DNA of 64,000 bases from NCBI GenBank assembly GCA_023248155.1, contig JAHFFE010000001.1, positions 212,873-276,872 of the forward strand, read 5' to 3'. Under the pieces are notes generated by a model that did not search any database, was not told the DNA's origin, and saw only the letters and a program-made list of their open reading frames with translations. Positions within the stretch are counted from its first letter, which is position 1, and every line of letters starts with the position of its first letter. The translations under genes and the position numbers were made by a program. Below are positions 1,501-55,885 of this stretch, piece by piece. This DNA comes from Candidatus Omnitrophota bacterium (GTDB lineage Bacteria > Omnitrophota > Gorgyraeia > 1-14-0-20-64-10).

Positions 1501-1529
1501 TTCAAATATAAGATTTTATTAGGTATACT
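1501..1529 (+). promoter_or_regulatory. Putative sigma70-like promoter (TTCAAA-N17-TATACT) for the giant secreted protein, with a very short leader
   Basis: -35-like TTCAAA 1501-1506, 17-nt spacer, -10-like TATACT 1524-1529, ATG at 1542; the same GTATACT element recurs upstream of six other genes in the window. Confidence 0.4.
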
Positions 1530-4500: not shown

Positions 4501-7091
4501 GTGCCACTGTTGTTGTACAGCGCGGTCTTTATCATGTTGTATCTGAATACGGTATCGATTACGATACGCTGAAATTCCGTTCCATAGAACGAAGGGTAGA
4601 AATAGATGACTCTATTACCAAGATAGCGTTTTTTTACCACGAACAGTTTCTAAGAGGAGAGTCGGTTCCTGTTTCGGATAAAATGCGCCGGAGTATGCTG
4701 GAAAATTTTATCGGTGATTCAGTGACGCGATTGTTGCAGGAAGAAACATCATCGGCCATTGCTTTTCGGGAAGCGGCTTCAATTACCGGAGCGTTGTCAG
4801 ATCAAGAGCTGGACGAACTCATCAAATTCCTTGGGGAAGATTTTGTAGCTTTTCGAGAAAACCAGAAGACGGCTTTCTTTGGAGCCTGGAATAGTCAAAG
4901 AGATTTAACGACACTGCAATGGCTGCAGACGCATCAAAAAATATCTGCCGCTAATTTCGAAATACTTCGTCCTGCAATCAATCGTCGAGTAAACGCCGGG
5001 CAGGAAGAATTGGGCACGGTGGTTATCGACCAGCACCAAAAACCTATTTCGGCGGTGGCGATCAGCTCGGACGGAAAAACAATTGCCTCTGGAGATAGTG
5101 CCGGCCGGTTGATCATCAAGCAGGTGGAAGGAGCACCGGAACCGATCATCGTTAATACGGGAAATGTAATTACCGACCTGGTTTTTGATACCAGCGGCGG
5201 AAAAATTGCCGTGGGATATGTCAACGGAGCCATTGCATTTTACGATCCGCAAACCGGAAAGACATTTCCAGAAGATGTCGCTCAACCGACTGAGCTGGGT
5301 TCTTTGATCTGGGATATGGCGTTCCACAGAGAAGGTCATCTTACCGCGATTTCTCATCCAGGACTTATTCATTCGATTGATCCTGAAACGGGTGATATCG
5401 ACCGTCTCTTTGAAGGACTTGTTAAATTCTCAACAACTCCCGGAATTGTTCGTATGGCCGTTGCTTTCCCGAACAACGAAAGCAGTCCCAAGTTCGCGAT
5501 TTCTGGTGATTCTGAAGTAAGGGTTATTGAAGAAGGTTTATCGCCCCGCGAGATCGACAGGTTTGAGGCGCCGGGTCATGTAATTCAGCAATTGGCGATT
5601 GATCCGACCGGGCAATATCTGGTGGCTTCCAATCTGGAAGACAACGACGACGAAAACTGGATTCAACTGAGAGACATTAACGCGCATGCTTCTATAACAT
5701 TGAACGGTGTTCATCGGCAGAGAGCGAATGCAATAGCCTTTTCTCCCGATGGAAAAATGCTGGTTTCTGCGGGTAAAGACGGCCAGTTGGTTTTTTGGGA
5801 AGTTCCTTCAGGCCGCGTGATCAAAATCGTTTCGCTCGACCCGATGGAGGGCAAAATTCAGCCTGTACCTAAAAGAGGAGATCCGTCGTATGTAAGCTCT
5901 GTTATTTTTCATAATGTAGTTTTTACGCCCAACGGCCACTCGGTGCTGGTTGCCGTTGAAGATCAGCGCAGTAAGCAGCAGACCGTCCGGCAATTTTCCG
6001 TTCCCGCCGCCGGGCAGGAAAAAGATTTGCCGCTGGATATCCGGCAATGGGATATTGATCAAGCAGATGTGAATGGCAAACCAATCGAAGAGTTAGCTCT
6101 TGTGAAATTACCGCCGGAGGGCCTTCGCTTGCCGCACGCGGCCATTCCAAACGAAGGGGTCCAAATTTATTTAGGGATTGCGGGGGTTCATCTTTCTCCG
6201 GAACCGGCTCCATGGTGGAGTGGTTTTCTTTTTTTGAAATCGGCCGCAAAGTCTCTGCGACTGACACAGACGGTGGCGCACAGCGACAAAGGCAAGATTC
6301 TCCGGCAGGGTGGAACGCCCATTCTGCTTGGCCTAGATCCGCAACAAGGAGCTTCATCACAATACGCGGCGGGGCCTTTTGACCCGTATCTTGTTTCGGT
6401 CGCTGGAGTTTCCAGGGCACACCTGCTTATTCGCTGGGATACGAATGGGGATATTGTTTTCAAGGACCTCAATTCCAGAAATGGCACCTGGATTGATCGA
6501 CAAGCCGCAGAACAGATCAAAGTGGGTTCACTGGCGATTCCATTTGTTAGCGCCGGGCAGGAGGAGGGAATCACGGTTGCTTTTCCGGAATCGGTATTGC
6601 AGGATGCGCAAAGACAGGGCGTTACTGTTTTTGATGCCGAGCAATTGGCAGGCTACGGTATTCCGGGCGCGCATGGAATATTAATTGCCGACTCAGCAAA
6701 CAGCAAGAGTTCTTCTGGGAAAATTTACGCGGACAATGAATTAGAAAACAGAGCCGCAGAAAGAGTATTCACTTGGGTGCTCGCCGGTGATAACGCAGTC
6801 GATATTATAGAGACTGCTGAAATTAATTCGGCAGCGGCCGGAGATTTAATTATTTTACGCCCGGAAACAGGTTTGGATAACGATCGAATTAAACAACTTT
6901 TGGAAGCGCAATGGATTAATCCTTCCGTTCGGGTCGTTGTTGGGGACGCTTCCGTTGTGAATGGGCTTTCCGTGAATGCGTTTCGTTTGCTGGCAGGGGG
7001 ACTTGATTTGCCGCCGGTGGTATTCCTCAACACAACGGTTCGCTTGAATGATGAAGCTGGCAATACTTACACGCTGATCCTGATGGCGTAA
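1542..7091 (+). CDS. Giant secreted/membrane multidomain protein (1849 aa): signal peptide, right-handed beta-helix, internal TM helix, WD40-like beta-propeller, FHA domain; six (A)GQEE(K/R) motifs between domains
   Basis: Single uninterrupted ORF. N-terminal signal peptide (LWALILVIALALPNPALA); parallel beta-helix repeats (NLTIGSGSIVANMTIRGDVTLTGGAQLLNSVVQGRVILAGDANQV); TM GLLAIAFGVTLLAAVPVALWLF; WD40-like blades (ISSDGKTIASGDSAGRLII, FSPDGKMLVSAGKDGQLVFWEV); FHA signature (VSRAHLLIRWDTNGDIVFKDLNSRNGTWIDRQ); AGQEE at aa ~56, 238, 658, 1152, 1490, 1671. Confidence 0.85.
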   Translation: MKHQSPQPITGRLWALILVIALALPNPALALRPTGLEESSSKNKSNFLSQLAASSAGQEERTHLLELGDSQSIYDRMVDIAQIVVGSSIFDQDAVTEFLLGDEPPVVILALDKVKVFYAPGDSLDQNQSGNDILIVWEQGSFDEREIAQYFRTIGADDPSLLPSVEGAIDFSFNFSSGMPAGSLTDIRVAEVIHHLDTGGDITLRIKYSKVAEIAERLPVVLALAARFIKKGYNPFSAGQEEKTQLPFNRRTALRTFGVLLGLPFLSEFTIAQNSVSPPKILTTLQLPPVPLPNSLMAQKAVRLATKTDSTFKDNSGAKLWVAGWPGDSVQPKPVIIPKGVNLVGEGDAAQVLEGNLTIGSGSIVANMTIRGDVTLTGGAQLLNSVVQGRVILAGDANQVRGNRIFGNTLYRENGKLQYSLGPAGPLVRIGTKEVASNGNVLEGNSIIAGVPPAEIGYHPTAYLKKQFPNDEQPQTSMGRSRKLELSAVHVVQGAQNKLRYNTIVSLESDAPAVLVGAWREYVLPDRGKVIGSVTLENNVAINIGKLDPDRIRPIVADREVVSGGNNLMISEQFIHTQAKVTDSDRAYGIAAGPTIEFRPEREMLFERANGAPKKSSFDLIGTQPGTYRLRKEFFDQNTPFGKFPEIGVFRQSSDQQAGQEEKTTPKPNMNLAGPAGLRPQFDKISALQGLSPARKDQLAQAIASERPFSGYKDSADLVARMRGQVSGVNTTQLQAIGNHFQPGMSRRGLLAIAFGVTLLAAVPVALWLFQPATAPEGHIVWVFEPHGANDLGVVFAELRAAAKSGQKTIYIRESVPFANFSQLNAEAPKLAQQLKPETIDPLLALYEQNGEEGLLKESALAREIKTLYEERQKDADIEIPQLRSDPSVLKDPPPGLDQNILLEAQLLVDYPNIEVRNEKASFIAYLYHIRSEWTNELAGRALFGDNDRDAYFRFMMDSFRYEALNIELRDRPFASFVESILRENPGATVVVQRGLYHVVSEYGIDYDTLKFRSIERRVEIDDSITKIAFFYHEQFLRGESVPVSDKMRRSMLENFIGDSVTRLLQEETSSAIAFREAASITGALSDQELDELIKFLGEDFVAFRENQKTAFFGAWNSQRDLTTLQWLQTHQKISAANFEILRPAINRRVNAGQEELGTVVIDQHQKPISAVAISSDGKTIASGDSAGRLIIKQVEGAPEPIIVNTGNVITDLVFDTSGGKIAVGYVNGAIAFYDPQTGKTFPEDVAQPTELGSLIWDMAFHREGHLTAISHPGLIHSIDPETGDIDRLFEGLVKFSTTPGIVRMAVAFPNNESSPKFAISGDSEVRVIEEGLSPREIDRFEAPGHVIQQLAIDPTGQYLVASNLEDNDDENWIQLRDINAHASITLNGVHRQRANAIAFSPDGKMLVSAGKDGQLVFWEVPSGRVIKIVSLDPMEGKIQPVPKRGDPSYVSSVIFHNVVFTPNGHSVLVAVEDQRSKQQTVRQFSVPAAGQEKDLPLDIRQWDIDQADVNGKPIEELALVKLPPEGLRLPHAAIPNEGVQIYLGIAGVHLSPEPAPWWSGFLFLKSAAKSLRLTQTVAHSDKGKILRQGGTPILLGLDPQQGASSQYAAGPFDPYLVSVAGVSRAHLLIRWDTNGDIVFKDLNSRNGTWIDRQAAEQIKVGSLAIPFVSAGQEEGITVAFPESVLQDAQRQGVTVFDAEQLAGYGIPGAHGILIADSANSKSSSGKIYADNELENRAAERVFTWVLAGDNAVDIIETAEINSAAAGDLIILRPETGLDNDRIKQLLEAQWINPSVRVVVGDASVVNGLSVNAFRLLAGGLDLPPVVFLNTTVRLNDEAGNTYTLILMA

Positions 7092-7103
7092 TACAATAGC
7101 AGT

Positions 7104-16215: not shown

Positions 16216-17595
16216 CTAAGCCACAACTCTGATGGCGACAAAACTAATCTCAGTGGTGGTGCTATCGAAATCATTGGTGACCACGCCATTGGGGTAAGGC
16301 CACAGGTCGCAATCGCTACCCCCGACCACGGACCAGGCTCCCACGAGATGCCAGCCCTCGTCGGCGTTACATTCAATACCATCGAGCGTATTACCGAAAC
16401 CGTTAAAAACTGAACCGGCAGGAGCAGCTACATTGTTCAGCGGAAGGAAGGGAGTAGTGCCCGCCGGAGCGGAAATAATACGAATCGGCCGAGTGCCGCC
16501 GCTGCTTCTAAACCCCTGCGCGAATTCGATCCGCGGCCCTCCTGCCAGTGCAACATAAGCGCCGCCGCTTTGAGACACCATAATCTGGTCCGTTGTGGAA
16601 TTGTAGTAAAGCCGGCCTGTATTGTTAACGCTGACCGAGGGATCAGCCGCCAAGCCGGGCAGTTGGATAGCCCCATCTTGAGTAAGCCGCATTCGTTCCG
16701 TGGAGGCGTTGGCGCCGGCTGCTGTTGTTGAAAAGATCAGCATGGCGGGCGTGGAAGCGGCCGTCCAATTCGCCGTTGCCTGCGCGCTGATTTGCGCTCC
16801 CGGGGCGAACCCCGCGCCGGTAAATCCAAAGAAGCCCACTTCCCCAAGAAGATCGTTGTTCAACACCGGTTGGCGGAACGCGCCTCCGGGAAAGTTTCCA
16901 CGCTCCCGCATCAGCGATAACCGGGCTCCCTGGTTGGCCGTGTCTGATTCCGCGTGAATCGACAAATTCGTCGTTTGCCCGAACGGACCCACGGCCACCA
17001 ATTGCGCCGCAGGTTCCAGAGGAAACGCCGTTCCAATGCTCAGATTGCCGCCGGTAATCGCTAAACTATCGTTGCCGGTCATTTGGATCCGCATATCGAA
17101 GTCGGTCGGCGCGTCGTTGGCAAAATCAATGTAGGGATTCCCGCCAAATGTCTCCGAACGAAGTTCAATCGCGGTGTTCTGATCGGAAGGGCCCCGAATC
17201 TGAACATAGTTCGCCGATCCAGCCGCCTGCCTGACAAACAAGTCTCCGGCTATATCCAGGCTTATCGTCCCTCCCGCACCCGGCAGAAATAGAGCCTGCG
17301 ATGCTTGGCCGGCGACACCCTGCACTTGCAGCAGCGTCAGGGGGTTTGTTGGCGCGTTATTCCCAAACCCGGGACCAATCCCCAAACTCGTCTGGATCAA
17401 TGCCTGGCCGTTGGCCAGCGTCGTGTTCAGATAAGCGTTGCCGACCGTCAAACTGGTAACATGTTCGTTGCCGCCAGACGTCGGGTAATAAGTGACGATC
17501 TCCGTAGTTTCCGCCCAGGCGTATCCAACAAAAGTTCCGATGAAGAAGAGAAAAAGAAGAACGCTTTTATTTTTCCAGAGAGGTTTAATTTTCAC
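16216..17595 (-). CDS. Secreted fibre-like protein, paralog family member (type-A N-terminal module)
   Basis: A GTG start at 17595 (SD AGGAG 8 nt upstream) gives VKIKPLWKNKSVLLFLFFIGTFVGYAWA|ETTEIVTYYPTSGGNEHVTSLTVGNAYLNTTLANGQALIQTSLGIGPGF..., the shared family N-terminus; also carries the DLFVRQAAGS...NPYIDFANDAPTDFDMRIQ module shared with 32375 and 39817. Confidence 0.85.
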   Translation of the reverse strand: MKIKPLWKNKSVLLFLFFIGTFVGYAWAETTEIVTYYPTSGGNEHVTSLTVGNAYLNTTLANGQALIQTSLGIGPGFGNNAPTNPLTLLQVQGVAGQASQALFLPGAGGTISLDIAGDLFVRQAAGSANYVQIRGPSDQNTAIELRSETFGGNPYIDFANDAPTDFDMRIQMTGNDSLAITGGNLSIGTAFPLEPAAQLVAVGPFGQTTNLSIHAESDTANQGARLSLMRERGNFPGGAFRQPVLNNDLLGEVGFFGFTGAGFAPGAQISAQATANWTAASTPAMLIFSTTAAGANASTERMRLTQDGAIQLPGLAADPSVSVNNTGRLYYNSTTDQIMVSQSGGAYVALAGGPRIEFAQGFRSSGGTRPIRIISAPAGTTPFLPLNNVAAPAGSVFNGFGNTLDGIECNADEGWHLVGAWSVVGGSDCDLWPYPNGVVTNDFDSTTTEISFVAIRVVA

Positions 17596-17620
17596 GGGAT
17601 ATCTCCTATCGTAACAGTTT

Positions 17621-18730
17621 TCAGGCGAGTTTTTTCCAGGTTTCGCGCAGGCCGAACCAGGCAAATCCAATCGGCGCGACCCAGGCCGCCATCAACGGCG
17701 GAAGCCAGCCCCCTTTTCCGAGCGCTACGCACAGCGCGTTAGCGCCGTAAAAAATAAGGCCTACGCCTATTCCAAAACTTAGTCCCAACGCGGCGCCTCC
17801 GCGGACCGGCTGAATAGCGAACGGAACGCCCAGGATCGTCAAAACCAGACAGACTATTGCGGCAGCCGGTTTTCCATAGAGATCCACGCGCAGTTTGCGC
17901 AGCGTCGCGTTGCCGGCCCCCTGCAGGCGGCGGATGTAACGGTTTAAGTCGCGCATATTTAAGAGCGACGACTGGTTTTCGGCCCGTTCCAGATACTCCG
18001 GCTTGTCGCCGACGCGGATGATTTTTACGGTAAATGGCGCGGCTCGGCCGACGGCCTGACCATCCGCGTCAAAATGCAAAATCGTGCCGTTGTAAAACCG
18101 CCAGTAGGCGTCGGCAGTCCAAACGCCGCTTTCAGCCGTGATTTTTCGCAGCAGGTGAAGATCGGATCCATGCTGCAGCACGATCACGCCCTCCAACCGT
18201 TTTTCTACGGGATCGAATGTTTTCGCGTACATCAGAGAATGTCCCAGGCCGAACGCGGTCAGGTTCTCCACCACATGCGGAGAACGATACTTCGCTTTTT
18301 TAACGAGCGAAATTCGTTCCAGCTTGACCTGGCGGATTTGATGGGTCACCACATTGGCCTGCGGAACCACCCACTCATTCATCGAGAAAACACCGATCGA
18401 AACTAAAATAGCCACCCAGATAAATGGCCGCGTGATGCTCCAGGGACGGATTCCGGCCGCGCGCATCGCCATGATTTCTAGGTATTTGTTGAGCGTGCTC
18501 AACGTATAAAGCGTGGCCATCAGGCAGGCGAACGGCGCGACCTGCACGAAAATCATCGGAAGCATCAGCAGATAATATTTCGTGACGATCGAAAACGCGA
18601 CATGGTTGTACAAAATATCATCCAAATGCTCCAGAAGATCCAGCACCAGATACAACCCTGAAAAAATCGACAGACACCAGATCAGCGGAGCCAGGTAAGC
18701 GCGCAGCAGATAACGGTCAAGGATTCGCAT
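17621..18730 (-). CDS. lptG: LPS export ABC transporter permease, LptF/LptG (YjgP/YjgQ) family
   Basis: MRILDRYLLRAYLAPLIWCLSIFSGLYLVLDLLEHL... typical YjgP/YjgQ N-terminus; six TM segments; internal Met chosen so it does not overlap the upstream paralog. Confidence 0.8.
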   Translation of the reverse strand: MRILDRYLLRAYLAPLIWCLSIFSGLYLVLDLLEHLDDILYNHVAFSIVTKYYLLMLPMIFVQVAPFACLMATLYTLSTLNKYLEIMAMRAAGIRPWSITRPFIWVAILVSIGVFSMNEWVVPQANVVTHQIRQVKLERISLVKKAKYRSPHVVENLTAFGLGHSLMYAKTFDPVEKRLEGVIVLQHGSDLHLLRKITAESGVWTADAYWRFYNGTILHFDADGQAVGRAAPFTVKIIRVGDKPEYLERAENQSSLLNMRDLNRYIRRLQGAGNATLRKLRVDLYGKPAAAIVCLVLTILGVPFAIQPVRGGAALGLSFGIGVGLIFYGANALCVALGKGGWLPPLMAAWVAPIGFAWFGLRETWKKLA

Positions 18731-20561: not shown

Positions 20562-20604
20562 GATTGGCAGAATAGCATCCGGCTGACGCGGGTGTCAACG
20601 AACG

Positions 20605-22619: not shown

Positions 22620-22620
22620 G

Positions 22621-23048
22621 CCACTCGCTTCTTCACGCTTCCGTCAGGCAACCTGTGTTTCGAGTCGGCTCGGGCATGGGAGCCGTGGACACGCTCGGAA
22701 TCGACTACCGATTCCGTCGCTCTGTCTCCGGCCTTGCCGAAGAACAATTCGTTTCGGCCTCCGCCAAGGTCCACTTGCCCCATATCCCGATCCGCCTCTT
22801 ACCACGCATGAGTTAGAGTGAGAGCCACGAAGGGGTCCCGGAGCTTCGAGCGATTCCGTGCAGGATAAGGCTGAGCAGGCACTGGAAACCCTGAGCGGGC
22901 ATGGTTCTCCGTCGAAGACGGAGAGAGCGAAGGGTTGACCGTAGTGCAGCGAGACTCGCAGGGGCGAGCAAGCGGCCTGCGAACGCCTTGCCTGACGGAA
23001 GCGCGAAGAAGCGTACCGTGTCCACGGTCCCCATGCCCGGGCCGACTC
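22621..23048. repeat. ORF-less intergenic block with two long crossing complementary segment pairs (possible structured RNA or rearrangement scar)
   Basis: A: 22626-22651 pairs with 22988-23013 (26 nt, 1 mismatch). B: 22662-22693 pairs with 23017-23048 (32 nt, 1 mismatch + 2 GU). The order is A,B...A',B' (crossing), plus internal hairpins at 22696-22716 and ~22910-22922. Confidence 0.5.
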
Positions 23049-23114
23049 TAAATTAATAGTGAGCGAGAAAACGGGTTTGAATTCGCGGGTCGGGAACTTT
23101 ACAATAGAGGGACG

Positions 23115-23615: not shown

Positions 23616-24000
23616 AACCGCCCTGCTCCAGCCGCTTTGAAATGCCCAAGCCGATCTGCTGAGCGATATCCACTTTCGGGAGCAGGTGCTTTCGCGCGCG
23701 CACCGTGACGCGGACCGCCGAGGGGGTTAACTGCTTGAGTGTGATTGCCACATCGGCATCCTGAACCAGCGCGGCGATCCGGCCGTGGTTCAAATCTTCT
23801 TTCTTGATCAACCCCTGCGATTTGGCTTCTTCCAGCGCCGCCTGCCAGACTTCCATCCAGGGCTTTTCCAGCGTCAGTACCATCGAATCCCGGCTGATGG
23901 CGTACCCGGCGGCGGCACCCGTGACAATCAGCATCGGCGCGCATCCGAACAACCCGGTCATCATTCCTGCGCACAAAGTAGCGGCGAGAATTTTTCGCAT
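23599..24000 (-). CDS. Putative lipoprotein (hypothetical)
   Basis: Signal peptide with lipobox (MRKILAATLCAGMMTGLFGC); convergent, 17-nt overlap with the nuclease gene. Confidence 0.5.
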   Translation of the reverse strand: MRKILAATLCAGMMTGLFGCAPMLIVTGAAAGYAISRDSMVLTLEKPWMEVWQAALEEAKSQGLIKKEDLNHGRIAALVQDADVAITLKQLTPSAVRVTVRARKHLLPKVDIAQQIGLGISKRLEQGGSTQDL

Positions 24001-24055
24001 CAGGTATACTCCTTAAAGTAGAGTCTGTCGTTCATTGTACCCGAGAGGGAATCCA

Positions 24056-26170
24056 ATGACAACCATCGCAAAACTGCAGAAAGAATGGAAACAGCCGTCG
24101 CTGCTGGAGCGGCTTAAGCCGGTGATTTTAGACGGCGCGGTTTGCTCCGATCTGAAACGGGCCGCTTCGCGCGAATGGGTGATTACCAACGGCATCGGCG
24201 GGTATGCTTCGTCCACGGTGGCCGGTATGAATACGCGCCGTTCCCATGGACTTCTGGTGGCTGCGATGAACCCGCCCGTCGGACGAATGGTCATCCTTTC
24301 CAAGGTAGAGGAAGAACTGGTGCTGCCGCATTCCCGCCAGATGCTTTCGGTCAATCAGTACGGCTCCGACGTCATTCACCCCGAGGGTTTCCGATACTTG
24401 ACGCAGTTTCGTCTGGATCCTTGGCCGGTGTTTGTTTACCGTACGTCGGAATGCGTTTTGGAAAAATCGGTCTGGATGCTTCCGGGTGAAAACGCGACGG
24501 TGATCGGTTACCGGATTCTGCAGGCGCCTTCTCCGGTTGAATTATGGGTCCGCCCGCTGGTGGCGCTGCGCGATTTCCGCGATTTGCGCCATGAACGGAC
24601 CAGCCCTCCGCCGTCGTGCGAGCAGGGTCCGGACTGGGTCGCCGTCCGGATGCAGCCCGGGCTTCCGGAGTGCTGGATTCATCACAATGCTGAGTGGGTC
24701 GAGTGGGCTGCCTGCTGGTACAAAAATTTTGAATACGCCGAGGAACGCAGTTTGGGACCGATGACCGGGTATCGGAAAACAGACCTCAACTGGAGCCGCG
24801 AAGATCTCTGGTCGTTCGGAAATTTACGCTATCTATTAAAAGAAGGCGAGACCGGTTTTTTGGTGGCATCGACCGGACGGCAGGGAATGGGTGATTTTTC
24901 GTTTCACGCGCGGCGCGTGGAAAATACGCAGGCCGTTCTGGCGCAGTCGATCCGTCCGCCCGGTAAGGGACCGCTGGCGACGCGGCTTTCCTGGACCGCC
25001 GACTCATTCGTTGTGCGGCGGCGGGCCGATTCGGTTTCCGGCCGGCATTCGGCCCGAACCGATTTAATGGCCGGATGGCCCTGGTTCACGCCGTGGGGAC
25101 GCGACGCGCTGGTGGCCCTGCCGGGGCTTACCTTGTCGACGGGGCGGCCGGAACTGGCGCGCGAAATTTTACAGACATTGGTTTCACACATGCGCGGCGG
25201 GCTGATCCCGGTTCGTTTTTCGGAAGCGGATGCCACGCCCCAGTATGATTCAGCCGATACCGCGCTCTGGTTTTTTTGGGCCGTCTGGCATTACTGGCAA
25301 AAAACGGACGATTTGAAATTTATCCGCAAATCGTTGTGGGACCCGATGCGCGAAATCATTCAAGCCTATTTGCGCGGCACCGGATTTGGCATCACTGCCG
25401 GAGAAGACGGACTGATCGACCTGTCGGACCCGGACCGGCCTCTGACCTGGATGGACGCGCGGTTGCCCTCCGACGAAGAAGAAGTTCTGCCCGGCCTGGC
25501 GGTTACGCCGCGTTCCGGCAAACCGGTGGAAGTCAACGCGCTCTGGTACTGCGCGCTGGAAATCATGGCGCACCTGGCCGATGAAATCGGTTTTCACAAG
25601 TCGGGCGTCTACGCGCGGTTCCGCGGAAAAATCCGCCGCTCGTTCATGCAGCAGTTCTGGTCGGAGCCCGAACAATTTTTGTACGACCGCGTCACGCCGC
25701 AGGGGCCGGACCGGTCGATCCGGCCGAATATGCTGATCGCGGCCAGCCTTCCGTTCACGCCGCTGACGCGCCGCCAGATCGCGGCCATCGTCGCGTTAAC
25801 GCGCCAACAGCTGCTCACGCCGTCGGGCGTTCGCACGCTGACGCCGCTGGATTCCCGGTACCGGGGCCGGTACGAGGGTGATTTTTCGGCGAGGGCCGAG
25901 GCCTATCATCAGGGAACTGTCTGGACCTGGTTAATCGGACCTTATGTATCCGCCGCGTTGAAAGCGGCCGGTAACGCCGCGTCCGAACGCCGCCGGCTGG
26001 CCGACGGCCTGCGGCCGTTTTCGGCTTATCTGCAACAGGGCTGCCTCGGATCTCTGCCGGAACTGTTTGACGGCGATTCGCCCCATCGTTCGCGCGGAGG
26101 CCCTTCGCAGGCCTGGTCGGTGGGCGAGATGCTGCGCGCGATTGAGCAAACCGGCGTTTCTGATTTGTAA
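24056..26170 (+). CDS. Glycogen debranching enzyme (GDE N-terminal domain + amylo-alpha-1,6-glucosidase, archaeal type)
   Basis: ITNGIGGYASSTVAGMNTRRSHGLLVAA (GDE_N) and a C-terminal six-hairpin amylo-1,6-glucosidase region; start taken at Met8 (24056) with SD GAGAGGGAA. Confidence 0.8.
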   Translation: MTTIAKLQKEWKQPSLLERLKPVILDGAVCSDLKRAASREWVITNGIGGYASSTVAGMNTRRSHGLLVAAMNPPVGRMVILSKVEEELVLPHSRQMLSVNQYGSDVIHPEGFRYLTQFRLDPWPVFVYRTSECVLEKSVWMLPGENATVIGYRILQAPSPVELWVRPLVALRDFRDLRHERTSPPPSCEQGPDWVAVRMQPGLPECWIHHNAEWVEWAACWYKNFEYAEERSLGPMTGYRKTDLNWSREDLWSFGNLRYLLKEGETGFLVASTGRQGMGDFSFHARRVENTQAVLAQSIRPPGKGPLATRLSWTADSFVVRRRADSVSGRHSARTDLMAGWPWFTPWGRDALVALPGLTLSTGRPELAREILQTLVSHMRGGLIPVRFSEADATPQYDSADTALWFFWAVWHYWQKTDDLKFIRKSLWDPMREIIQAYLRGTGFGITAGEDGLIDLSDPDRPLTWMDARLPSDEEEVLPGLAVTPRSGKPVEVNALWYCALEIMAHLADEIGFHKSGVYARFRGKIRRSFMQQFWSEPEQFLYDRVTPQGPDRSIRPNMLIAASLPFTPLTRRQIAAIVALTRQQLLTPSGVRTLTPLDSRYRGRYEGDFSARAEAYHQGTVWTWLIGPYVSAALKAAGNAASERRRLADGLRPFSAYLQQGCLGSLPELFDGDSPHRSRGGPSQAWSVGEMLRAIEQTGVSDL

Positions 26171-26193
26171 TTTCAAAATCAGATAGGTATACT
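26165..26193 (+). promoter_or_regulatory. Putative promoter (TTGTAA-N17-TATACT) giving a leaderless transcript for the pseudopilin gene
   Basis: TATACT 26188-26193, only 6 nt before ATG 26200; -35-like TTGTAA overlaps the upstream stop codon. Confidence 0.4.
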
Positions 26194-26199
26194 TAAATT

Positions 26200-26736
26200 A
26201 TGAGGCAGACTTCTTCATTCAAGCGGCGCGGGCAGTCCGGTGTTTCGCTGCTGGAGTTGATTGTCGCCACGGCGATCGTCGGCATTGTCAGTTTAGCTGT
26301 CGCTACGATCTACACCACTGCCAACCGCTACATGCTTCAGGATTTCAATTCCTCTAATGCGCAGAGCGAAGCTTCGTTCGCGCTGGAGCATATCAAGAAA
26401 TTTGTGCAGTTGGCCACCGCGATTGACAATGCGACTCTGCCGGTTGGCGGAAATTCAAACGCGCTGCAGTTTACCTGGACGAATCGAGAACCTCCCAGCA
26501 CCGGCGCATTGGTTACGCGCACTTCCCGCTATGAAATCCAGGCCGGGAATTTGGTTTTTATACAAGATACTACGGTGGGTGCCGCGGAACAATTGGCGAG
26601 GGGAGTCTCGGCCATTGAGTTTACGCGTCCGTTGGCCGGAAGCATCGCGGTTGATTTGACCGTTAATGTCAACGCGGTTACCGGCACCCGGCAGCAGCGG
26701 CTTCAAACCACGGTGAATCCTCGAGGCGTGGCATAA
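26200..26736 (+). CDS. Prepilin-type N-terminal cleavage/methylation domain protein (type IV pilin / pseudopilin)
   Basis: Class III signal: KRRGQSG|VSLLELIVATAIVGIVSLAV with Glu at +5. Confidence 0.8.
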   Translation: MRQTSSFKRRGQSGVSLLELIVATAIVGIVSLAVATIYTTANRYMLQDFNSSNAQSEASFALEHIKKFVQLATAIDNATLPVGGNSNALQFTWTNREPPSTGALVTRTSRYEIQAGNLVFIQDTTVGAAEQLARGVSAIEFTRPLAGSIAVDLTVNVNAVTGTRQQRLQTTVNPRGVA

Positions 26737-32332: not shown

Positions 32333-32338
32333 TATACT
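32333..32338 (+). promoter_or_regulatory. GTATACT -10-like element upstream of the first gene of the fibre cluster
   Basis: TGTATACT 32331-32338, 36 nt before ATG 32375, SD GGAGG in between. Confidence 0.35.
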
Positions 32339-34069: not shown

Positions 34070-35433
34070 AGCGCGCAATTTTGTTGTTCACCGTTTTAGG
34101 GCTTGTTTCTAGTATCGCCTGGGCGGAAACCACAGAAATTGTTACCTATTATCCGACTACCGGCGGTAATAACGAACATTTAAACGATTTAACGGTAGGG
34201 CCGGGCTTTTTGGGAGAAAACCCCGACCCTGGCGAAGTGCTGATTGAAACGCGGCTTGGAATCGGAACTAATAATCCGCAGGAACAGATTCAGATCACGG
34301 GCAATTTAAGGCTTCCTGCCACCACCGCCGCGGGAGGTGTTCCTTCCGGCGGTGTTATTTTTTCTAATACAAACAGGTTTATTCACAATTTTGGGAGCGG
34401 CAATTTTTTCGCGGGGACCAACGCAGGCAATTTCACGCTGACGGGTTCTTCGAATGTTGGGATAGGCACTAACGCGATGCAGAGCCTGACGAACGGAATT
34501 CAGAATGTCGCCGTGGGACCTCGCGCCATGGAGAGCACGACCAGCGGGCAGAGGAATTCCGCGTTTGGCATGGAGAGTCTGAATAATAATACGACGGGCG
34601 GTTTGAACACAGCGCTGGGGCATAATACGCTTTTTTTTAATCAGACCGGATTTGATAACACCGCGGTAGGCTATCAGGCTTTGCTGAACACGACGGGCAG
34701 CGATAACGTGGCGGTGGGCCAAAACGCCGGATCGAATTTGTTGGCGAACGCGAACACGACCGGGTCGGGCAATACGTTTATAGGGACCCGATCGGGTTCC
34801 GGGGTGGCCGCGCAATTAACCAACGCGACCGCGCTTGGATTTGAAGCATTGGTCTCGGCCAGCAACGCGCTGGTGCTGGGCGGAACAGGCGCCAACGCGG
34901 TCAATGTGGGGATTGGCACGGAAACGCCGGCTCAGCGGCTTCATGTCGTGGGAACCGTGCAAATCGTAGATGGGACCCAGGCGAACGGAAGAGTGCTAAC
35001 CTCTGACGCCAACGGCGTAGCCAGCTGGCAGGCAGCCACTTCAGTGCCTGTTATCGCAAATCCTACATTGGCCGCACCGGTCTGGGTTCGGGTCGGGAAT
35101 AATATCCTTTTCGGGAACCAGGATCATGAATTCATGACCCGGTTCACGTTTGCCACCGCGGGAGGTGTCCGCCGCGTGCGGCTTACGGTGACGGCTCGAA
35201 ATGCCAACGATCAGCCGCCTGTCGGTACCGTCTTTAATCTGAATTCGCCCACATTCAGGGACGGTTGGGGTGGAAATAACGCGGGACCAGGAGGAGGGTA
35301 TACTCTCAACTGGATTCAGTTTTACACCCAAAATCCAGGAAACGGAAATCAGTTAACCGTCGTCGCTTTTGGAGAGGATGGCAGCAGTGGCTTTGGATCG
35401 ATTAATGCAAACGTTGATGTTTCGTATCAGTAA
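34066..35433 (+). CDS. Secreted fibre-like protein, paralog family (type-B N-term)
   Basis: MKRAILLFTVLGLVSSIAWA|ETTEIVTYYPTTGGNNEHLNDLTVGPGFLGENP...; NTAVG/NTTG repeats; start overlaps the upstream stop (ATGA). Confidence 0.85.
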   Translation: MKRAILLFTVLGLVSSIAWAETTEIVTYYPTTGGNNEHLNDLTVGPGFLGENPDPGEVLIETRLGIGTNNPQEQIQITGNLRLPATTAAGGVPSGGVIFSNTNRFIHNFGSGNFFAGTNAGNFTLTGSSNVGIGTNAMQSLTNGIQNVAVGPRAMESTTSGQRNSAFGMESLNNNTTGGLNTALGHNTLFFNQTGFDNTAVGYQALLNTTGSDNVAVGQNAGSNLLANANTTGSGNTFIGTRSGSGVAAQLTNATALGFEALVSASNALVLGGTGANAVNVGIGTETPAQRLHVVGTVQIVDGTQANGRVLTSDANGVASWQAATSVPVIANPTLAAPVWVRVGNNILFGNQDHEFMTRFTFATAGGVRRVRLTVTARNANDQPPVGTVFNLNSPTFRDGWGGNNAGPGGGYTLNWIQFYTQNPGNGNQLTVVAFGEDGSSGFGSINANVDVSYQ

Positions 35434-39722: not shown

Positions 39723-39780
39723 GGGAATTCATCTACCCTACGGGTTTTTAAGTCGGCTGTCAATGAGTGCCGGTATCATG

Positions 39781-39786
39781 TATACT
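39781..39786 (+). promoter_or_regulatory. GTATACT -10-like element upstream of fibre gene 39817
   Basis: GTATACT 39780-39786, then SD AGGAGG and ATG 39817. Confidence 0.35.
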
Positions 39787-41384: not shown

Positions 41385-42773
41385 GTGACGCAGGCGGTTA
41401 ACAGGGTATTTCTCCAATTGCCTGGAGAGCAAATCAGTTCTCTGGCGCGTCGGCGCCGGTCGCTGGCGTTAAAACACCAGATGGTAGTTTATAATTCCCG
41501 CAAGCAGCCCCACCAGATCGATCTTCAGATGCGGCCCTGGGTGATGACGCGCGTGCAAGAATCATTTTTTTATAAAACCTGCCGGCTTCTGAATTCCGCG
41601 CTCGATAGAATCGTTCCTCTCTATTTGCACAATCCGCAGGTTCGCCAGATCGTTCCGTTGGAGCCGTATGAAGACGAATGGCTGCGTGCCGCCAACGCCC
41701 GCAAACTGCAAACGCCGCGAACGGTTTTCGGCCGGATCGACGCGACCGCTACCTTCGCGCATCCGCGCTGGAAGGACGATTTCTGGTTTTTGGAGCCGAA
41801 TGAAATCGGCATCGGCGGTGTTTATTACATCTACGGCACGATGGCGATGGCCAATGAATGGGTCGTGCCGCTGCTGAAAGAAAAAATCCCGGCGTTTCAG
41901 CCGCGAATGGCCAACGATCCGCAGCGGCTGCTGTTTCTGCTGATGCGCCGGCACGCGCGCGCCATTGGCCGGCCATTAAAGCGCGTGGCATTGGTCGAAG
42001 ATTGTTCAGAGCCGGAAGGGACCGCCGAATTTTCTTCGGTAGTCCAATCGTTCCGGCGATGGGGACTGGACGCGTTTGTGGCCGACCCTCGTCAGGTGAA
42101 AAGTCGTCGCGGCGAAATTACCGTGCGCGGGAAACCGGTTGATCTGATTTACCGCGATACGGAACTGACCGAGATGGCCGAAATGGGCGGCCGCGATTTT
42201 TCAAAAAAATTCTCGGGCATGCGCGAAGCGTTCATCCAAAACCGCGGGATCTCTTCGCTGGCCGGCGAGTTCGATCACAAGTCATGCTGGGAATTGTTTA
42301 CCAATCCGCAATTTGGCCATTATTTTACGCCTGCCCAGCGCCGGCTTTTCCAGAAACATATTCTTTGGACACGGTTACTGTGGGAACGGACCACGACCGA
42401 TTGGAACGGAAAATCGGTCGATCTCGTTGCCTGCACTCAAAAGAACCGCGCACGCTTGGTGCTGAAGCCAAACCGCGCGTACGGCGGAGAAGGGGTTTTA
42501 TTCGGTTGGGCTGTTTCGCAGAGCCGATGGGATCGCGCGCTGGCAACGGCGCTGCGGGAACCGTCCCAATGGATTGTTCAGCGCGCCGCGCGCGTGCATG
42601 AAGAATTATTTCCGGAGATCCGTCCCAATGGCCGCGTAAAACTGGAACCATTTTTTGCGGTAACCGGTTTTGCCGCTACCCCCGACGGCATGGCGGTTCT
42701 GGGCCGGTTTTCAGAAGAATCGGTAGTGAATGTTTCCCGCCGCGGCGGATTAATTCCGGTTTTTCGATTGTGA
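41385..42773 (+). CDS. Hypothetical protein, possibly circularly-permuted ATP-grasp / glutathionylspermidine-synthase-like
   Basis: 462 aa, GTG start; weak resemblance (IGIGGVYYIYG, RAYGGEGVLFGW ATP-grasp-like strands); assignment is tentative. Confidence 0.35.
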   Translation: MTQAVNRVFLQLPGEQISSLARRRRSLALKHQMVVYNSRKQPHQIDLQMRPWVMTRVQESFFYKTCRLLNSALDRIVPLYLHNPQVRQIVPLEPYEDEWLRAANARKLQTPRTVFGRIDATATFAHPRWKDDFWFLEPNEIGIGGVYYIYGTMAMANEWVVPLLKEKIPAFQPRMANDPQRLLFLLMRRHARAIGRPLKRVALVEDCSEPEGTAEFSSVVQSFRRWGLDAFVADPRQVKSRRGEITVRGKPVDLIYRDTELTEMAEMGGRDFSKKFSGMREAFIQNRGISSLAGEFDHKSCWELFTNPQFGHYFTPAQRRLFQKHILWTRLLWERTTTDWNGKSVDLVACTQKNRARLVLKPNRAYGGEGVLFGWAVSQSRWDRALATALREPSQWIVQRAARVHEELFPEIRPNGRVKLEPFFAVTGFAATPDGMAVLGRFSEESVVNVSRRGGLIPVFRL

Positions 42774-42779
42774 TATACT
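42774..42779 (+). promoter_or_regulatory. TATACT -10-like element 6 nt before ATG 42786 (leaderless-type)
   Basis: GATATACT-gctgtc-ATG. Confidence 0.35.
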
Positions 42780-42785
42780 GCTGTC

Positions 42786-44300
42786 ATGAGCGATAAAAAA
42801 TCTTTCACAAAAATAGTCCTTGGGTTTTTAGCAATAGGGCTTGTTGCCGGCATCGCCTGGGCCGAAACGACCGAAATTGTGACCTATTATCCTACCAGCG
42901 GCGGTGGCGGCGCCGATCCGCAGGTAAACTCGATCAGGGTCGGAAACGGCTATGCAGGAACTGCTGCTCCGGGGAATGGAATAGCGCGCATCGAAACATC
43001 TCTCGGGATCGGTCTGGCGGGACTACCCACTCAACAGATTGAAATTACCGGTAATTTTCAGTTGCCGGCCACGACGGCTCCGGGAGGTATCCTTGCCGGG
43101 GGCGCTATTTTGTCCAATGGCAACAGGTTCATTCACAATTTCGGATCGAACAATTTTTTTGCGGGTGTGAACGCCGGTAACTTTACCATGACCGGTGGTA
43201 CGAACACGGCGGTTGGGGCTACTGCTTTGCGTGCCAACACTACCGGTGGCGGTAATACGGCTGTCGGTCAAAGTGCTTTGGCGAGCAATACCACCGGTCC
43301 TTCAAATACCGCTATCGGAATTGCTGCGCTCACTGCCAATATTAGCGGCGGCAACAATGTTGCTATTGGACGGACGGCGCTTTTCCTTAATAATAATGGT
43401 TCCTTCAACACCGCGGTCGGGAACCAGTCTCTTGCAAACAACACGGTTTCCGACAATACAGCCATTGGTTTTGGAGCTATGCAACTCAATACGACCGGCA
43501 CTGACAACACCGCCGTGGGGTTCTCTGCTCTGCTGAGTAATACCACGGGCGTCACCAATGCCGCCGTCGGCATGAACACCCTTCTCAACAACACCATTGG
43601 CGGCGGCAACGCCGCGCTGGGGACCAGTGCTCTTCTCAGCAACACCACCGGCATAAATAACACGGCGGTCGGCAGTGCTGCAGGTGGTATTAACACCACC
43701 GGTTCAAACAATGTTTTTATTGGGCAAATAGCACAACCAACTGTCGGGAACCTTACTAATGCCATTGCCATCGGTTCCAACGCGCAAGTTGGCGCCAGCA
43801 ACAGTATGGTTCTGGGTGGAACCGGCGCCAATGCGGTCAATGTCGGTATTGCTGTGACTACGCCGAGAACGCCGGCTCCGAACGCGGCCGCCGGCAACCT
43901 GGATGTAAATGATGTTTGGGTAAGAAGTTTGAACGCCGGGGCGGGAGCCTGGCTGAGTCAGCAGGCCGGAGGTGGAGCTCAAATGGTGACGGGCAGTTAT
44001 GTCGGTAATGGAATCAATGCCCGTCGAACCATAGCGGTTGCCGGCGTTACGGCGGCCACGCCGATTCGTTTCTTGACGGTAATTGGAAATTGGCGCAATA
44101 CGACTTCTGCGATGACCAATATTAAAACAGCGACCATGGCAGGAACGCTGAATTATCATTGGGCGCCTGCGCTGGCAACCTATGAGCTTACCGTCGGCGG
44201 TCCCGCGATTCAATTTGAGGCGACCGGGTTTAGTTTTCTGCATGATGCGGGCACCATCAATCAGAATGGGCAGACGTACCACTACATCGCCTATTTGTAA
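42786..44300 (+). CDS. Secreted fibre-like protein, paralog family (type-B N-term)
   Basis: ...GIAWA|ETTEIVTYYPTSGGGGADPQVNSIRVGNGY...; long run of NTAVG/NTTG 14-15-aa repeats. Confidence 0.85.
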   Translation: MSDKKSFTKIVLGFLAIGLVAGIAWAETTEIVTYYPTSGGGGADPQVNSIRVGNGYAGTAAPGNGIARIETSLGIGLAGLPTQQIEITGNFQLPATTAPGGILAGGAILSNGNRFIHNFGSNNFFAGVNAGNFTMTGGTNTAVGATALRANTTGGGNTAVGQSALASNTTGPSNTAIGIAALTANISGGNNVAIGRTALFLNNNGSFNTAVGNQSLANNTVSDNTAIGFGAMQLNTTGTDNTAVGFSALLSNTTGVTNAAVGMNTLLNNTIGGGNAALGTSALLSNTTGINNTAVGSAAGGINTTGSNNVFIGQIAQPTVGNLTNAIAIGSNAQVGASNSMVLGGTGANAVNVGIAVTTPRTPAPNAAAGNLDVNDVWVRSLNAGAGAWLSQQAGGGAQMVTGSYVGNGINARRTIAVAGVTAATPIRFLTVIGNWRNTTSAMTNIKTATMAGTLNYHWAPALATYELTVGGPAIQFEATGFSFLHDAGTINQNGQTYHYIAYL

Positions 44301-50746: not shown

Positions 50747-50754
50747 TTTTCGAG

Positions 50755-50760
50755 TATACT
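50755..50760 (+). promoter_or_regulatory. GTATACT -10-like element upstream of fibre gene 50779
   Basis: GAGTATACT then 18 nt to ATG. Confidence 0.3.
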
Positions 50761-53085: not shown

Positions 53086-53106
53086 CAAAAATAACCAATT
53101 TTATGG

Positions 53107-53112
53107 CATACT
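53107..53112 (+). promoter_or_regulatory. CATACT -10-like element 7 nt before ATG 53120 (leaderless-type); shares ATACTT(A)CCTTATAT with the 1524 element
   Basis: GCATACTTCCTTAT-ATG compared with GTATACTTACCTTATATCG-ATG at 1523. Confidence 0.35.
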
Positions 53113-55864: not shown

Positions 55865-55885
55865 AGTTATGATATTCTGTTGGGT

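Follow-up and report, generated by a model that had tools for sequence, protein, structure and literature searches.

The window, by which we mean the whole 64,000-nt stretch of DNA that was analysed, carries a gene for a glycogen-debranching (GDE) protein followed on the same strand by the first pseudopilin gene, together with genes for two giant proteins, ten fibre paralogs and several housekeeping genes. The GDE protein is 52–61% identical to proteins of Omnitrophota metagenome-assembled genomes, which places the source in the Omnitrophota; a search of genome and metagenome collections for closer relatives gave none above 61% protein identity. At the GDE–pilin junction, two other public assemblies are base-for-base the same, which rules out an assembly artefact, and the gene calls made on them start at this ATG too. 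The junction contains the following elements.

26165..26170, plus strand: TTGTAA, the -35 of the pseudopilin promoter; it consists of the GDE gene's final Leu codon (TTG) and stop codon (TAA)
26188..26193, plus strand: TATACT, the -10 of the same promoter; N17 from the -35 and N6 to the ATG
26200..26736, plus strand: first pseudopilin gene, with an N_methyl motif; no start other than ATG 26200 is possible, and a leaderless mRNA is predicted to have its 5′ end there

In the pseudopilin frame, a TAA lies two codons 5′ of ATG 26200 and the next start-type codon (TTG) is inside the conserved prepilin motif, past the cleavage site. Public gene calls agree on this start.

TATACT boxes and other promoters in the window

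The first-pass annotation had placed the element at 1524, 26188, 32333, 39781, 42774 and 50755 and, as CATACT, at 53107. All of these coordinates and spacings are exact, as is the 17-nt spacing claimed for the -35 hexamers TTCAAA (1501) and TTGTAA (26165), both of which a generic promoter scan flags independently. An intergenic copy at 24005, 45 nt ahead of the GDE gene, had been overlooked. Seven of the eight sites read TATACT, and the CATACT at 53107 has a compensating TGn. All eight are intergenic and co-oriented with the gene downstream. Further copies of TATACT lie on the sense strand of coding sequence (two, at 35299 and 61337) and on the minus strand (three).

Over both strands of the window, TATACT has 12 matches, against 4.6 ± 2.2 in shuffles. 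Intergenic DNA amounts to 2778 nt (4.3% of the window) and holds seven sense-strand copies where 0.49 are expected; none of 5000 composition-matched resamples reached seven. The element is thus more frequent than chance would give. Over-representation of hexamers in the whole sequence is uninformative because coding sequence dominates the counts, and non-coding DNA was analysed instead; among all hexamers with at least six non-coding matches, TATACT ranks top by non-coding fraction. The generic scan for sigma-70 promoters and terminators, run on the whole window, found sigma-70-like pairs to be no more numerous than in shuffled sequence and was used only as an independent flag for single sites. 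It is thus where the boxes lie and how well they are conserved, rather than any consensus score, that speaks for promoters.

The remaining surface and accessory genes with such a box have the following promoters.

1501..1529, plus strand: TTCAAA-N17-TATACT promoter of the 1849-aa giant protein (giant protein 1); -10 at 1524, N12 to ATG 1542, no Shine-Dalgarno sequence (SD)
32333..32338, plus strand: TATACT -10 of fibre gene 32375; 36-nt spacing that contains the SD GGAGGTG, leadered
39757..39786, plus strand: CTGTCA-N18-TATACT promoter of fibre gene 39817; -10 at 39781, 30-nt spacing with the SD AGGAGGTG
42771..42779, plus strand: extended -10 TGaTATACT of a fibre gene; hexamer at 42774, N6 to ATG 42786, no SD
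50755..50760, plus strand: TATACT of a fibre gene, 18 nt ahead of ATG 50779; a leader of some 11 nt is predicted, without a clear SD
53104..53112, plus strand: extended -10 TGgCATACT of the 914-aa giant protein 2; N7 to ATG 53120, no SD

The better -35 hexamers are found at 26165 (TTGTAA, 17 nt), 1501 (TTCAAA, 17 nt) and 39757 (CTGTCA, 18 nt). At 24005, 32333 and 50755, the -35 has only three matches out of six; the boxes at 42774 and 53107 have a TGn. The promoter of giant protein 1 comes after a tRNA-Met gene and a terminator hairpin (~1427–1462) and thus opens a new transcription unit; a second box, TACCTT (1530–1535), stands N6 from its ATG. The -35 of fibre gene 39817 overlaps that of the divergent TldD promoter. 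The upstream gene has its stop codon in the TGA of the extended -10 at 42771, and the in-frame stop at this position excludes an earlier start for fibre gene 42786, whose N-terminus aligns from residue 1 with that of paralog 58866, a gene with a normal SD. Of the window's ten fibre paralogs, six are without TATACT and lie behind other promoters.

The housekeeping genes had been described as having conventional SD sequences, in contrast to the accessory genes. Their promoters are as follows.

7092..7097, plus strand: TACAAT of an rluB/rsuA-type pseudouridine synthase gene; N6 to ATG 7104, no SD
20569..20598, minus strand: TTGACA-N18-(TGc)TATTCT promoter of comF; N7 to ATG 20561, no SD
23077..23105, plus strand: TTGAAT-N17-TACAAT promoter of a bifunctional-nuclease-domain (BFN) gene; N9 to ATG 23115, predicted leader of 2–3 nt
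24005..24010, plus strand: TATACT -10 of the GDE (housekeeping) gene; 45-nt leader, SD GAGAGGG, ATG 24056
39735..39763, minus strand: TTGACA-N17-TAGGGT promoter of a TldD/PmbA peptidase gene; N12 to ATG 39722, no SD
55870..55878, plus strand: extended -10 TGaTATTCT of a UbiD-family decarboxylase gene; hexamer at 55873, N7 to ATG 55886, no SD

The contrast is not supported. The rluB-like gene, comF (the first gene of a comF-lptF-lptG operon) and ubiD have a -10 at 6–7 nt and no SD, the boxes of the BFN nuclease and TldD genes are at 9–12 nt, and relatives across the phylum have kept the arrangement at comF and at the nuclease gene. Leaderless geometry is peculiar neither to accessory genes nor to TATACT. 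Where the -35 is a perfect TTGACA, the -10 is weaker (TATTCT, TAGGGT), and TATACT goes with a weak -35 or a TGn; such compensation between -35 and -10 is that of ordinary sigma-70 promoters.

Across the annotated starts, a TAnnnT hexamer ends 6–7 nt upstream in eight genes, compared with a mean of 1.5 at other offset pairs (Poisson p ~2e-4). With the CATACT at 53107 added to these, none of the nine genes with a box at this offset has an SD-like tetramer, compared with 19 of the 39 other genes (Fisher p = 0.006). The leaderless-promoter geometry that had been noted for the N6–N7 cases is confirmed in the window, and the comparative data agree with it. Every one of the leaderless candidates starts with ATG, and the start codons are pinned by in-frame stops, domain boundaries (S4, UbiD_N), the prepilin motif, paralog alignment and independent gene calls. 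In the rluB-like protein, the S4 domain begins at residue 1 and an in-frame stop is found four codons 5′ of ATG 7104; in the UbiD-family protein, the UbiD_N domain starts at residue 10.

Orthologous promoters in Omnitrophota relatives

About 20 orthologous GDE–pilin junctions of other Omnitrophota (loci of relatives are given L numbers below) keep a promoter at the same position, with TATACT as the sole conserved block, about 17 nt past TTGTAA. Over 19 orthologous junctions, the hexamer carries ~2 bits per position, against at most 0.5 for most flanking positions, and in the intergenic regions of 18 other Omnitrophota loci no second block reaches ~2 bits. TTGTAA is kept in place at most of the loci, including those in genomes of 60–67% G+C. 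The box is replaced by TATAAT in L082 and by TAAACT in L086 and L128, substitutions that retain TAnnnT and lose the GTATAC palindrome. A conserved box between neutral flanks is what selection on a sigma-70-type -10 element leaves behind. Downstream of the box, the relatives have a leader of 17–63 nt with a strong SD, whereas in the window this leader is absent (TATACT-N6-ATG), and the N6 geometry of the pilin gene occurs only in the window genome among the ~20 orthologs. In L006, L008, L013 and L014, the pilin gene has no promoter and abuts or overlaps the GDE stop, so co-transcription of GDE and pilin does occur in the phylum.

Other orthologous promoters keep the short spacing. For comF, 11 of 15 loci have the leaderless geometry, TTGACA-N17/18-TGcTATCCT-N6-ATG (N6–7), and for the BFN nuclease, about 20 loci have TTGACA-N17-TACAAT-N8–10-ATG, with TATACT in place of TACAAT in L004. 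A TATACT that seemed to be the promoter of sucD in L004 is in fact coding sequence (MSIL...) and was rejected. The box upstream of CMD-family and GDE genes is conserved in more than 20 relatives, where TATACT precedes both. The CMD-family gene has TATACT-N6/6/7/8-ATG in L082, L090, L005 and L093, respectively, compared with 33–61 nt and an SD in 17 other loci; it has lost its leader in four lineages, giving four independent N6–8 cases. The GDE gene has its box at N9–10 in L008 and L013, compared with N45 in the window. Fibre homologs that open transcription units in L003 and L013 carry TATACT, and a fibre gene in L012 has TATAAT. With gene starts in the relatives assigned by a crude home-made caller, the distance from box to ATG at orthologous promoters is bimodal (at most 12 nt, n = 10; 13–16 nt, n = 0; at least 17 nt, n = 31). 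This would be expected if a transcript starting ~7 nt downstream of the box needs either an AUG at once or a leader long enough for an SD.

Promoter class and probable leaderless expression

The proposal that the recurring heptamer is a -10 element is backed by its enrichment, its orientation and the footprint at orthologous promoters. On this evidence, the TATACT boxes appear to be real promoter -10 elements, probably yielding leaderless mRNAs where they lie near an ATG. Where transcription starts, and with it that translation is leaderless, we infer only from the position of the -10. The explanation that we favour, and think likely to be correct, is that the boxes are sigma-70-type -10 elements with transcription starting ~7 nt downstream, so that the distance from box to ATG sets whether the transcript is leaderless, has a short leader or has a leader with an SD.

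TATACT would be the commonest -10 variant in the lineage, typically combined with a weak -35 and either a TGn extension or a conserved T at -17 and G at -14/-13. Where RNA polymerase starts ~7 nt past a box located 6–7 nt from the ATG, the first base of the transcript would be the A of the AUG or lie no more than one base from it. This is predicted for the pseudopilin gene (26200), the fibre gene at 42786, giant protein 2 (53120), the rluB-like gene (7104), comF (20561) and ubiD (55886). Such an mRNA would have no 5′ UTR or SD, and its 5′-terminal AUG would be bound directly by the ribosome and the initiator tRNA. Boxes 9–18 nt from the ATG would give leaders of ~2–11 nt (giant protein 1, BFN nuclease, TldD and the fibre gene at 50779); those at least 30 nt away would give ordinary SD leaders (GDE and fibre genes 32375 and 39817). 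Several promoters seem to be squeezed into gaps of 12–34 nt by use of the last codons of the upstream gene, TTG-TAA serving as a -35 and TGA as a TGn, and the downstream gene would thereby get a transcript of its own. Five of the six N6–7 cases lie only 12–34 nt past a co-oriented gene with no terminator between, so read-through transcripts must also exist and could supply some translation.

It is improbable, in our judgement, that the N6–7 genes are expressed solely as internal cistrons of such transcripts, with the boxes inactive and translation relying on reinitiation, coupling or SD-independent initiation in a stretch that is A/U-rich and unstructured. The gaps to the upstream co-oriented genes (12, 29, 12, 34 and 21 nt, no terminator), the A/U-richness that the boxes lend to the region and the promoterless pilin genes of four relatives would all suit that arrangement. 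However, the box is the sole constrained element at distances of 6–63 nt from the ortholog starts, which excludes a fixed translational role, and the absence of 13–16 nt spacings would be left unexplained. Giant protein 1 and comF share the arrangement and clearly open their units, one after a tRNA gene and a terminator, the other between divergent genes, with a -35 that matches TTGACA perfectly. Reinitiation over 12–34 nt without an SD is, moreover, inefficient. Far less credible still is an origin by chance in A/T-rich DNA or by shared ancestry, the promoters having travelled with fibre and giant genes as these duplicated, or a role of the GTATAC palindrome as a restriction-modification or dimeric-regulator site. 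Fibre genes 32375 and 39817 do have TGTATACTTATTTT in common, ~24 bases are similar between the sequences ahead of 1542 and 53120, GTATAC is a perfect 6-bp palindrome and an 8-bp palindrome occurs at 50753–50760. Against chance stand the seven copies observed, well above the composition-matched expectation. Outside the box and a few bases beside it, alignments of the upstream regions of the two giant and four fibre genes reveal no homology, nor can paralogy be detected between the two giant proteins; paralogy was rejected as the source of the repeats. The element is strand-specific relative to the downstream gene; its ortholog-invariant positions are T-12, A-11 and T-7, the last of which is outside the palindrome, whereas G-13 of the palindrome shows only weak conservation, and the symmetry is lost wherever TATAAT or TAAACT takes the place of the box. 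The restriction-modification or regulator site was rejected on this conservation pattern, and the pattern and the resampling together largely refute this whole group of readings.

A further possibility is that a dedicated sigma factor (alternative or group 2), or else a regulator, recognises GTATACT along with the T at -17 and the G at -13/-14 and thereby co-regulates the giant proteins, fibres and pseudopilins; we regard it as doubtful. Seven of the eight TATACT-type boxes in the window do precede surface or accessory genes, the unit-opening fibre homologs of L003 and L013 also carry TATACT, and a good -35 is generally lacking at TATACT promoters; all the confidently identified housekeeping and tRNA promoters use TACAAT, TAAAAT, TATAAT, TATTCT and TAGGGT. 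T at -17 is present in seven of eight TATACT-type promoters versus one of nine others (binomial p ~0.001–0.004 before multiple-testing correction). However, paralogy among the four fibre genes means that their promoters cannot be counted as independent, and the motif is neither confined to one functional class nor present on all fibre paralogs (absent from the six noted above): it stands ahead of non-surface genes, namely, GDE here and CMD-family and GDE genes in the relatives. Orthologs swap TATACT with TATAAT or TAAACT (pilin; L082, L086) and with TACAAT (BFN; L004), and a fibre gene has TATAAT (L012); exchange of hexamers at orthologous promoters implies one recognition specificity. TTGnnn at 17–18 nt and the TGn extension are the architecture of primary-sigma promoters. 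In the relatives' loci, tRNA genes were sought as a test of primary-sigma usage and were not present. The alternative sigma factor suggested by the first-pass annotation for the surface-protein repertoire is not supported, and a dedicated factor for TATACT promoters is unlikely. We hold it to be just as doubtful that GTATACT with essentially no -35 forms a distinct class, through which a dedicated sigma factor or activator switches on the surface and host-interaction apparatus of Omnitrophota and whose leaderless format insulates it from read-through translation.

If sigma-70-type promoters with variable box-to-ATG distance are the correct explanation, gene prediction and expression modelling for the Omnitrophota, which are uncultured, widespread and represented by metagenomes only, should allow leaderless starts, as start calling based on SD sequences will misplace some N-termini. 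The pilin, CMD-family and GDE ortholog series around a fixed -10 would be a clean natural example of easy shifts between SD-leadered and leaderless forms. The TATACT promoter, with its exact, short and conserved box, is a candidate part should reporter or transcript work on the phylum become possible. In the literature on Omnitrophota, we found no paper linking the phylum with leaderless genes or promoter motifs. The leaderless mechanism itself is well known and hence not unexpected.

Comparison with known systems

Extended -10 (TGn) elements are found at 42774 (TGaTATACT), 53107 (TGgCATACT), 55873 (TGaTATTCT) and comF (TGcTATTCT) and at tRNA and citrate-synthase promoters. The TATACT class also resembles the ‘TRTGn’ -16 region of Gram-positive bacteria and E. 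coli, having T-17, usually G-14 (two of the four TRTG positions) and a weak -35; T at -15 is mostly missing, however, so the fit is incomplete and the role of T-17 putative. Phage lambda cI (from PRM) and Tn1721 tetR are classical leaderless mRNAs in which a 5′-terminal AUG is used directly. A 5′-terminal AUG is likewise predicted here, but those are isolated cases in an SD-dominated genome, whereas the arrangement in the window is frequent and evolutionarily conserved.

RpoS (sigma-S) is a proteobacterial factor, and the window has no sigma gene. Its promoter consensus in E. coli is TCTATACTTAA (PMC3367168), with which the window shares the core hexamer TATACT and, at 26188, the downstream TTAA as well, giving TATACTTAA. 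The C at -13, which is the selectivity base, is absent, however, this position being G at seven sites and A at one. The likeness is to the hexamer only, and a sigma-S-type promoter was rejected on this position.

A close likeness is to the Actinobacteria and Deinococcus-Thermus (group C; ‘TA-led’ genes, Zheng et al. 2011), where TAnnnT lies 6–8 nt from the first-in-operon start. In GeneMarkS-2 group C genomes, a leaderless Pribnow box is located 6–8 nt from the start (PMC6028130), and published leaderless promoters have TANNNT ~10 bp upstream (PMC3160421). As in those genomes, the window has such genes without an SD and with an ATG start side by side with SD-led genes. By a rough hand count, the leaderless-type share of its recognisable transcription units is roughly a quarter to a third, similar to the 25–50% published for group C (PMC6028130, PMC3160421). 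Unlike group C, the window belongs to another phylum, the Omnitrophota, and many of its promoters are internal, overlapping the 3′ end of the upstream gene. In contrast to the loose TAnnnT of high-GC Actinobacteria, its hexamers are information-rich (TATACT, TACAAT and TATCCT) and conserved base for base in orthologs.

TATACT boxes and the pilin promoter

The window is bacterial chromosome with a G+C content of about 55%. It carries metabolic genes (enolase, PtsI, PGI, MetK, AhcY, the glycogen-debranching gene GDE, citrate synthase, MDH, biotin genes and UbiD/UbiE), five tRNA genes, three pseudopilins, two very large proteins and ten paralogs of the fibre family. The best matches of the GDE protein are Candidatus Omnitrophota metagenome-assembled genomes (52–61% identity), some labelled "uncultured Planctomycetia"; a metagenome scan with GDE gave more Omnitrophota-type matches, none closer than these. 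Seven boxes had been listed in the first-pass annotation, and their coordinates were all correct on recheck. An eighth, at 24005, was absent from that list, as were two intragenic sense-strand and three minus-strand copies of TATACT.

TATACT-type boxes on the plus strand (Nx, x nt between the end of the box and the ATG)
1524, TATACT, N12
24005, TATACT, intergenic, 45 nt 5' of GDE (ATG 24056)
26188, TATACT, N6, first pseudopilin gene (pilin, ATG 26200)
32333, TATACT, N36
39781, TATACT, N30
42774, TATACT, N6
50755, TATACT, N18
53107, CATACT, N7

Of the window, 2778 nt (4.3%) are intergenic, and these contain seven sense-strand copies of TATACT against 0.49 expected from composition-matched resampling; none of 5000 resamples had seven or more. 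The 61 kb of coding DNA contain two copies per strand, and among all ranked hexamers TATACT has the largest extragenic fraction of copies. The recurrence exceeds chance. A repeat element is out as the source, since the upstream regions of the TATACT genes have only the box in common.

The order of GDE and pseudopilin is kept among relatives. Downstream of GDE at 18 other loci, TTGTAA (the final Leu codon and stop codon of GDE) is followed by about 17 unconserved nucleotides and TATACT. Across the orthologous junctions, each hexamer position carries about 2 bits of information and most flanking positions 0.5 bit or less. Among these orthologous loci of related Omnitrophota genomes, L082 has TATAAT and L086/L128 have TAAACT; the variants retain T−12, A−11 and T−7 and lose the GTATAC palindrome, which argues against a palindromic protein site or a restriction site. 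On this alignment, the conservation pattern is that of a selected sigma-70-type −10 element; the first-pass annotation had called the box −10-like, and the TATACT promoter feature is real.

In all relatives, the pilin box is followed by a 17–63 nt leader with a strong Shine-Dalgarno (SD) sequence (GGAGG); the N6 spacing occurs in the window only. ATG 26200 is the sole possible pilin start, since an in-frame TAA stands two codons 5' of it and the next in-frame start-type codon is a TTG within the conserved prepilin motif, past the cleavage site. The start in public gene calls is the same, and the GDE–pilin junction is identical across two independent assemblies. In two relatives (L085:3220–3290 and L090:6060–6140), the leader-peptide coding region has an in-frame insertion just 5' of the GFTLLE cleavage motif, an inverted repeat with a 12-bp stem (CCCCGTTRGATAG-N10-CATCTAACGGGG). 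In L085 (MRRGFT-PLDRRGHLT-GFTLLE), the GFT codon triplet is duplicated, with one copy on either side of the insertion. The insertion resembles either a very small palindromic mobile element that has duplicated its target site or a regulatory hairpin.

Short spacing and predicted leaderless expression

The N6 and N7 spacings described for the accessory genes are exact, but this geometry is specific neither to TATACT nor to accessory genes, being found at the rluB-like, comF and UbiD genes. The housekeeping genes had been assigned conventional SD sequences; five of them have none, and boxes at N6–N12 instead.

Genes without SD (position, strand, promoter)
7104, plus, rluB-like pseudouridine synthase, TACAAT-N6-ATG
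20561, minus, comF, TTGACA-N18-TGcTATTCT-N7-ATG
23115, plus, BFN (bifunctional) nuclease, TTGAAT-N17-TACAAT-N9-ATG
39722, minus, TldD, TTGACA-N17-TAGGGT-N12-ATG
55886, plus, UbiD-family gene, TGaTATTCT-N7-ATG

Over 48 complete genes, TAnnnT ends 6–7 nt 5' of the start in eight cases; other offset pairs average 1.5 (p ~2e-4). An SD-like tetramer precedes none of the nine genes with a box at 6–7 nt and 19 of the 39 others (p = 0.006). Among relatives, comF has TTGACA/TTGTCA-N17/18-TGcTATCCT (or TATTCT/TATGCT)-N6-7-ATG in 11 of 15 loci, and BFN nuclease has TTGACA-N17-TACAAT-N8-10-ATG in about 20. Since the geometry of both genes is kept, predicted expression without a leader, or with one of 1–4 nt, is an old, conserved habit of Omnitrophota.

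A non-coding insert of 495 nt (22620–23114) separates the trmA-like methyltransferase gene from the BFN nuclease promoter; in relatives the distance is only about 20 nt. It contains two pairs of long inverted repeats in a crossed arrangement (22626–22651 with 22988–23013, and 22658–22693 with 23017–23052), without an Rfam match at E<=1 or a long open reading frame in six frames. L001 and L009 have stretches, apparently non-coding and in opposite orientation, that are 73–83% similar to the core of the insert (22891–22983). The insert could encode a non-coding RNA or represent a MITE-like element.

The box at 24005 is a second conserved TATACT promoter. It lies upstream of GDE in the window, and in most relatives its ortholog lies upstream of a 127-aa CMD-family gene. 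The CMD start is 33–61 nt from the box, behind an SD, in 17 loci, and close to it in four (6 nt in L082 and L090, 7 nt in L005, 8 nt in L093); the GDE start is 9–10 nt away in L008 and L013. Spacing over the pooled sites is bimodal (ten at 12 nt or less, none at 13–16 nt, 31 at 17 nt or more). The gap is expected if transcription starts about 7 nt past the box, for such a start needs either an immediate AUG or room for an SD and spacer.

RNA polymerase holoenzyme on the box would start about 7 nt downstream. At N6–7 sites, the transcript would begin with the AUG and be translated without a leader; N9–18 sites would give a 2–11 nt leader and sites at N30 or more a leader containing an SD. We infer the transcription starts, and hence the term leaderless, from sequence. 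Read-through transcription with SD-independent initiation is a rival reading for the genes without SD, one that we consider improbable. Several boxes borrow the stop region of the upstream gene, so that each downstream gene would have its own transcript within a 12–34 nt gap. SD-less starts on read-through RNA would probably be translated poorly, and expression would thus rely mainly on the gene's own promoter.

Stop codons within promoters
7089–7097, TAA directly 5' of TACAAT
26165–26170, TTG-TAA as −35
42771–42773 and 55870–55872, TGA as TGn of an extended −10

Overlapping promoters

In relatives with 60–67% G+C, the rare TTG TAA still ends GDE, and its retention suggests selection on the overlapping −35. 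At 39757–39763, the −35 elements of TldD (TTGACA, minus) and fibre 39817 (CTGTCA, plus) use the same bases; these back-to-back promoters have one near-palindromic −35 region in common.

A DUF3568 lipoprotein gene (minus) and the GDE/CMD gene (plus) are divergent, with face-to-face, overlapping promoters (window 23998–24062, compared with L001–L014 and L081–L145). The SD (GGAG) and ATG of the DUF3568 gene flank the plus-strand TATACT, and the minus-strand −10 (TACAAT, 24034–24039) lies within the GDE 5' UTR. In relatives, the latter appears as conserved CATTTTAYAC or ATTCTAYCAC, on the minus strand often a TGn-extended TAAAAT or TAGAAT. With promoters so placed, the 5' ends of the two predicted mRNAs would overlap in antisense. 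The layout is conserved across the phylum.

Sigma factor usage and known systems

A dedicated factor reading the TATACT promoters of the surface repertoire, as first proposed, would account for the accessory genes downstream of seven of the eight TATACT-type boxes and for T at −17 (5 nt 5' of the hexamer), found in 7/8 of these boxes, 16/17 orthologous pilin boxes and 1/9 other promoters. TATACT also precedes two fibre homologs in other genomes, but six of the ten fibre paralogs in the window are without it, and GDE and CMD, which are not surface genes, are TATACT-driven. Orthologous promoters exchange hexamers, TATACT for TATAAT or TAAACT at pilin and TACAAT for TATACT at the BFN nuclease of L004. 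Perfect −35 elements pair with weaker −10 elements, and TATACT with a weak −35 and sometimes TGn, the usual sigma-70 trade-off. We therefore regard a separate factor as unlikely. T at −17 may serve as an extended −10 contact specific to this lineage. G is frequent at −14/−13 in the TATACT-type and orthologous pilin boxes (L001–L145).

The fibre paralogs (16216–17670 on the minus strand, 32375, 34066, 35501, 39817, 42786, 50779, 57336, 58866 and 61563) conserve the N-terminal 70–110 residues (signal anchor) and diverge at the C-termini. Several have an additional 200–300 residues in common, some pairs are 77–86% identical across about 300 residues, and Peptidase_S74 and Gly_rich_2 occur in one member each. 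The family resembles a surface repertoire that diversifies in cassette fashion.

The hexamer of the window is also that of the E. coli sigma-S consensus (TCTATACTTAA), but none of the window sites has the C at −13 that is diagnostic for sigma-S. For Omnitrophota, we found no literature on leaderless genes with such −10 geometry and no published description of its occurrence; the mechanism is already known from other bacteria. A −10 box 6–8 nt from the start codon is the published signature of bacterial leaderless genes (PMC6028130, PMC3160421), and the N6–7 boxes of the window fit this spacing.
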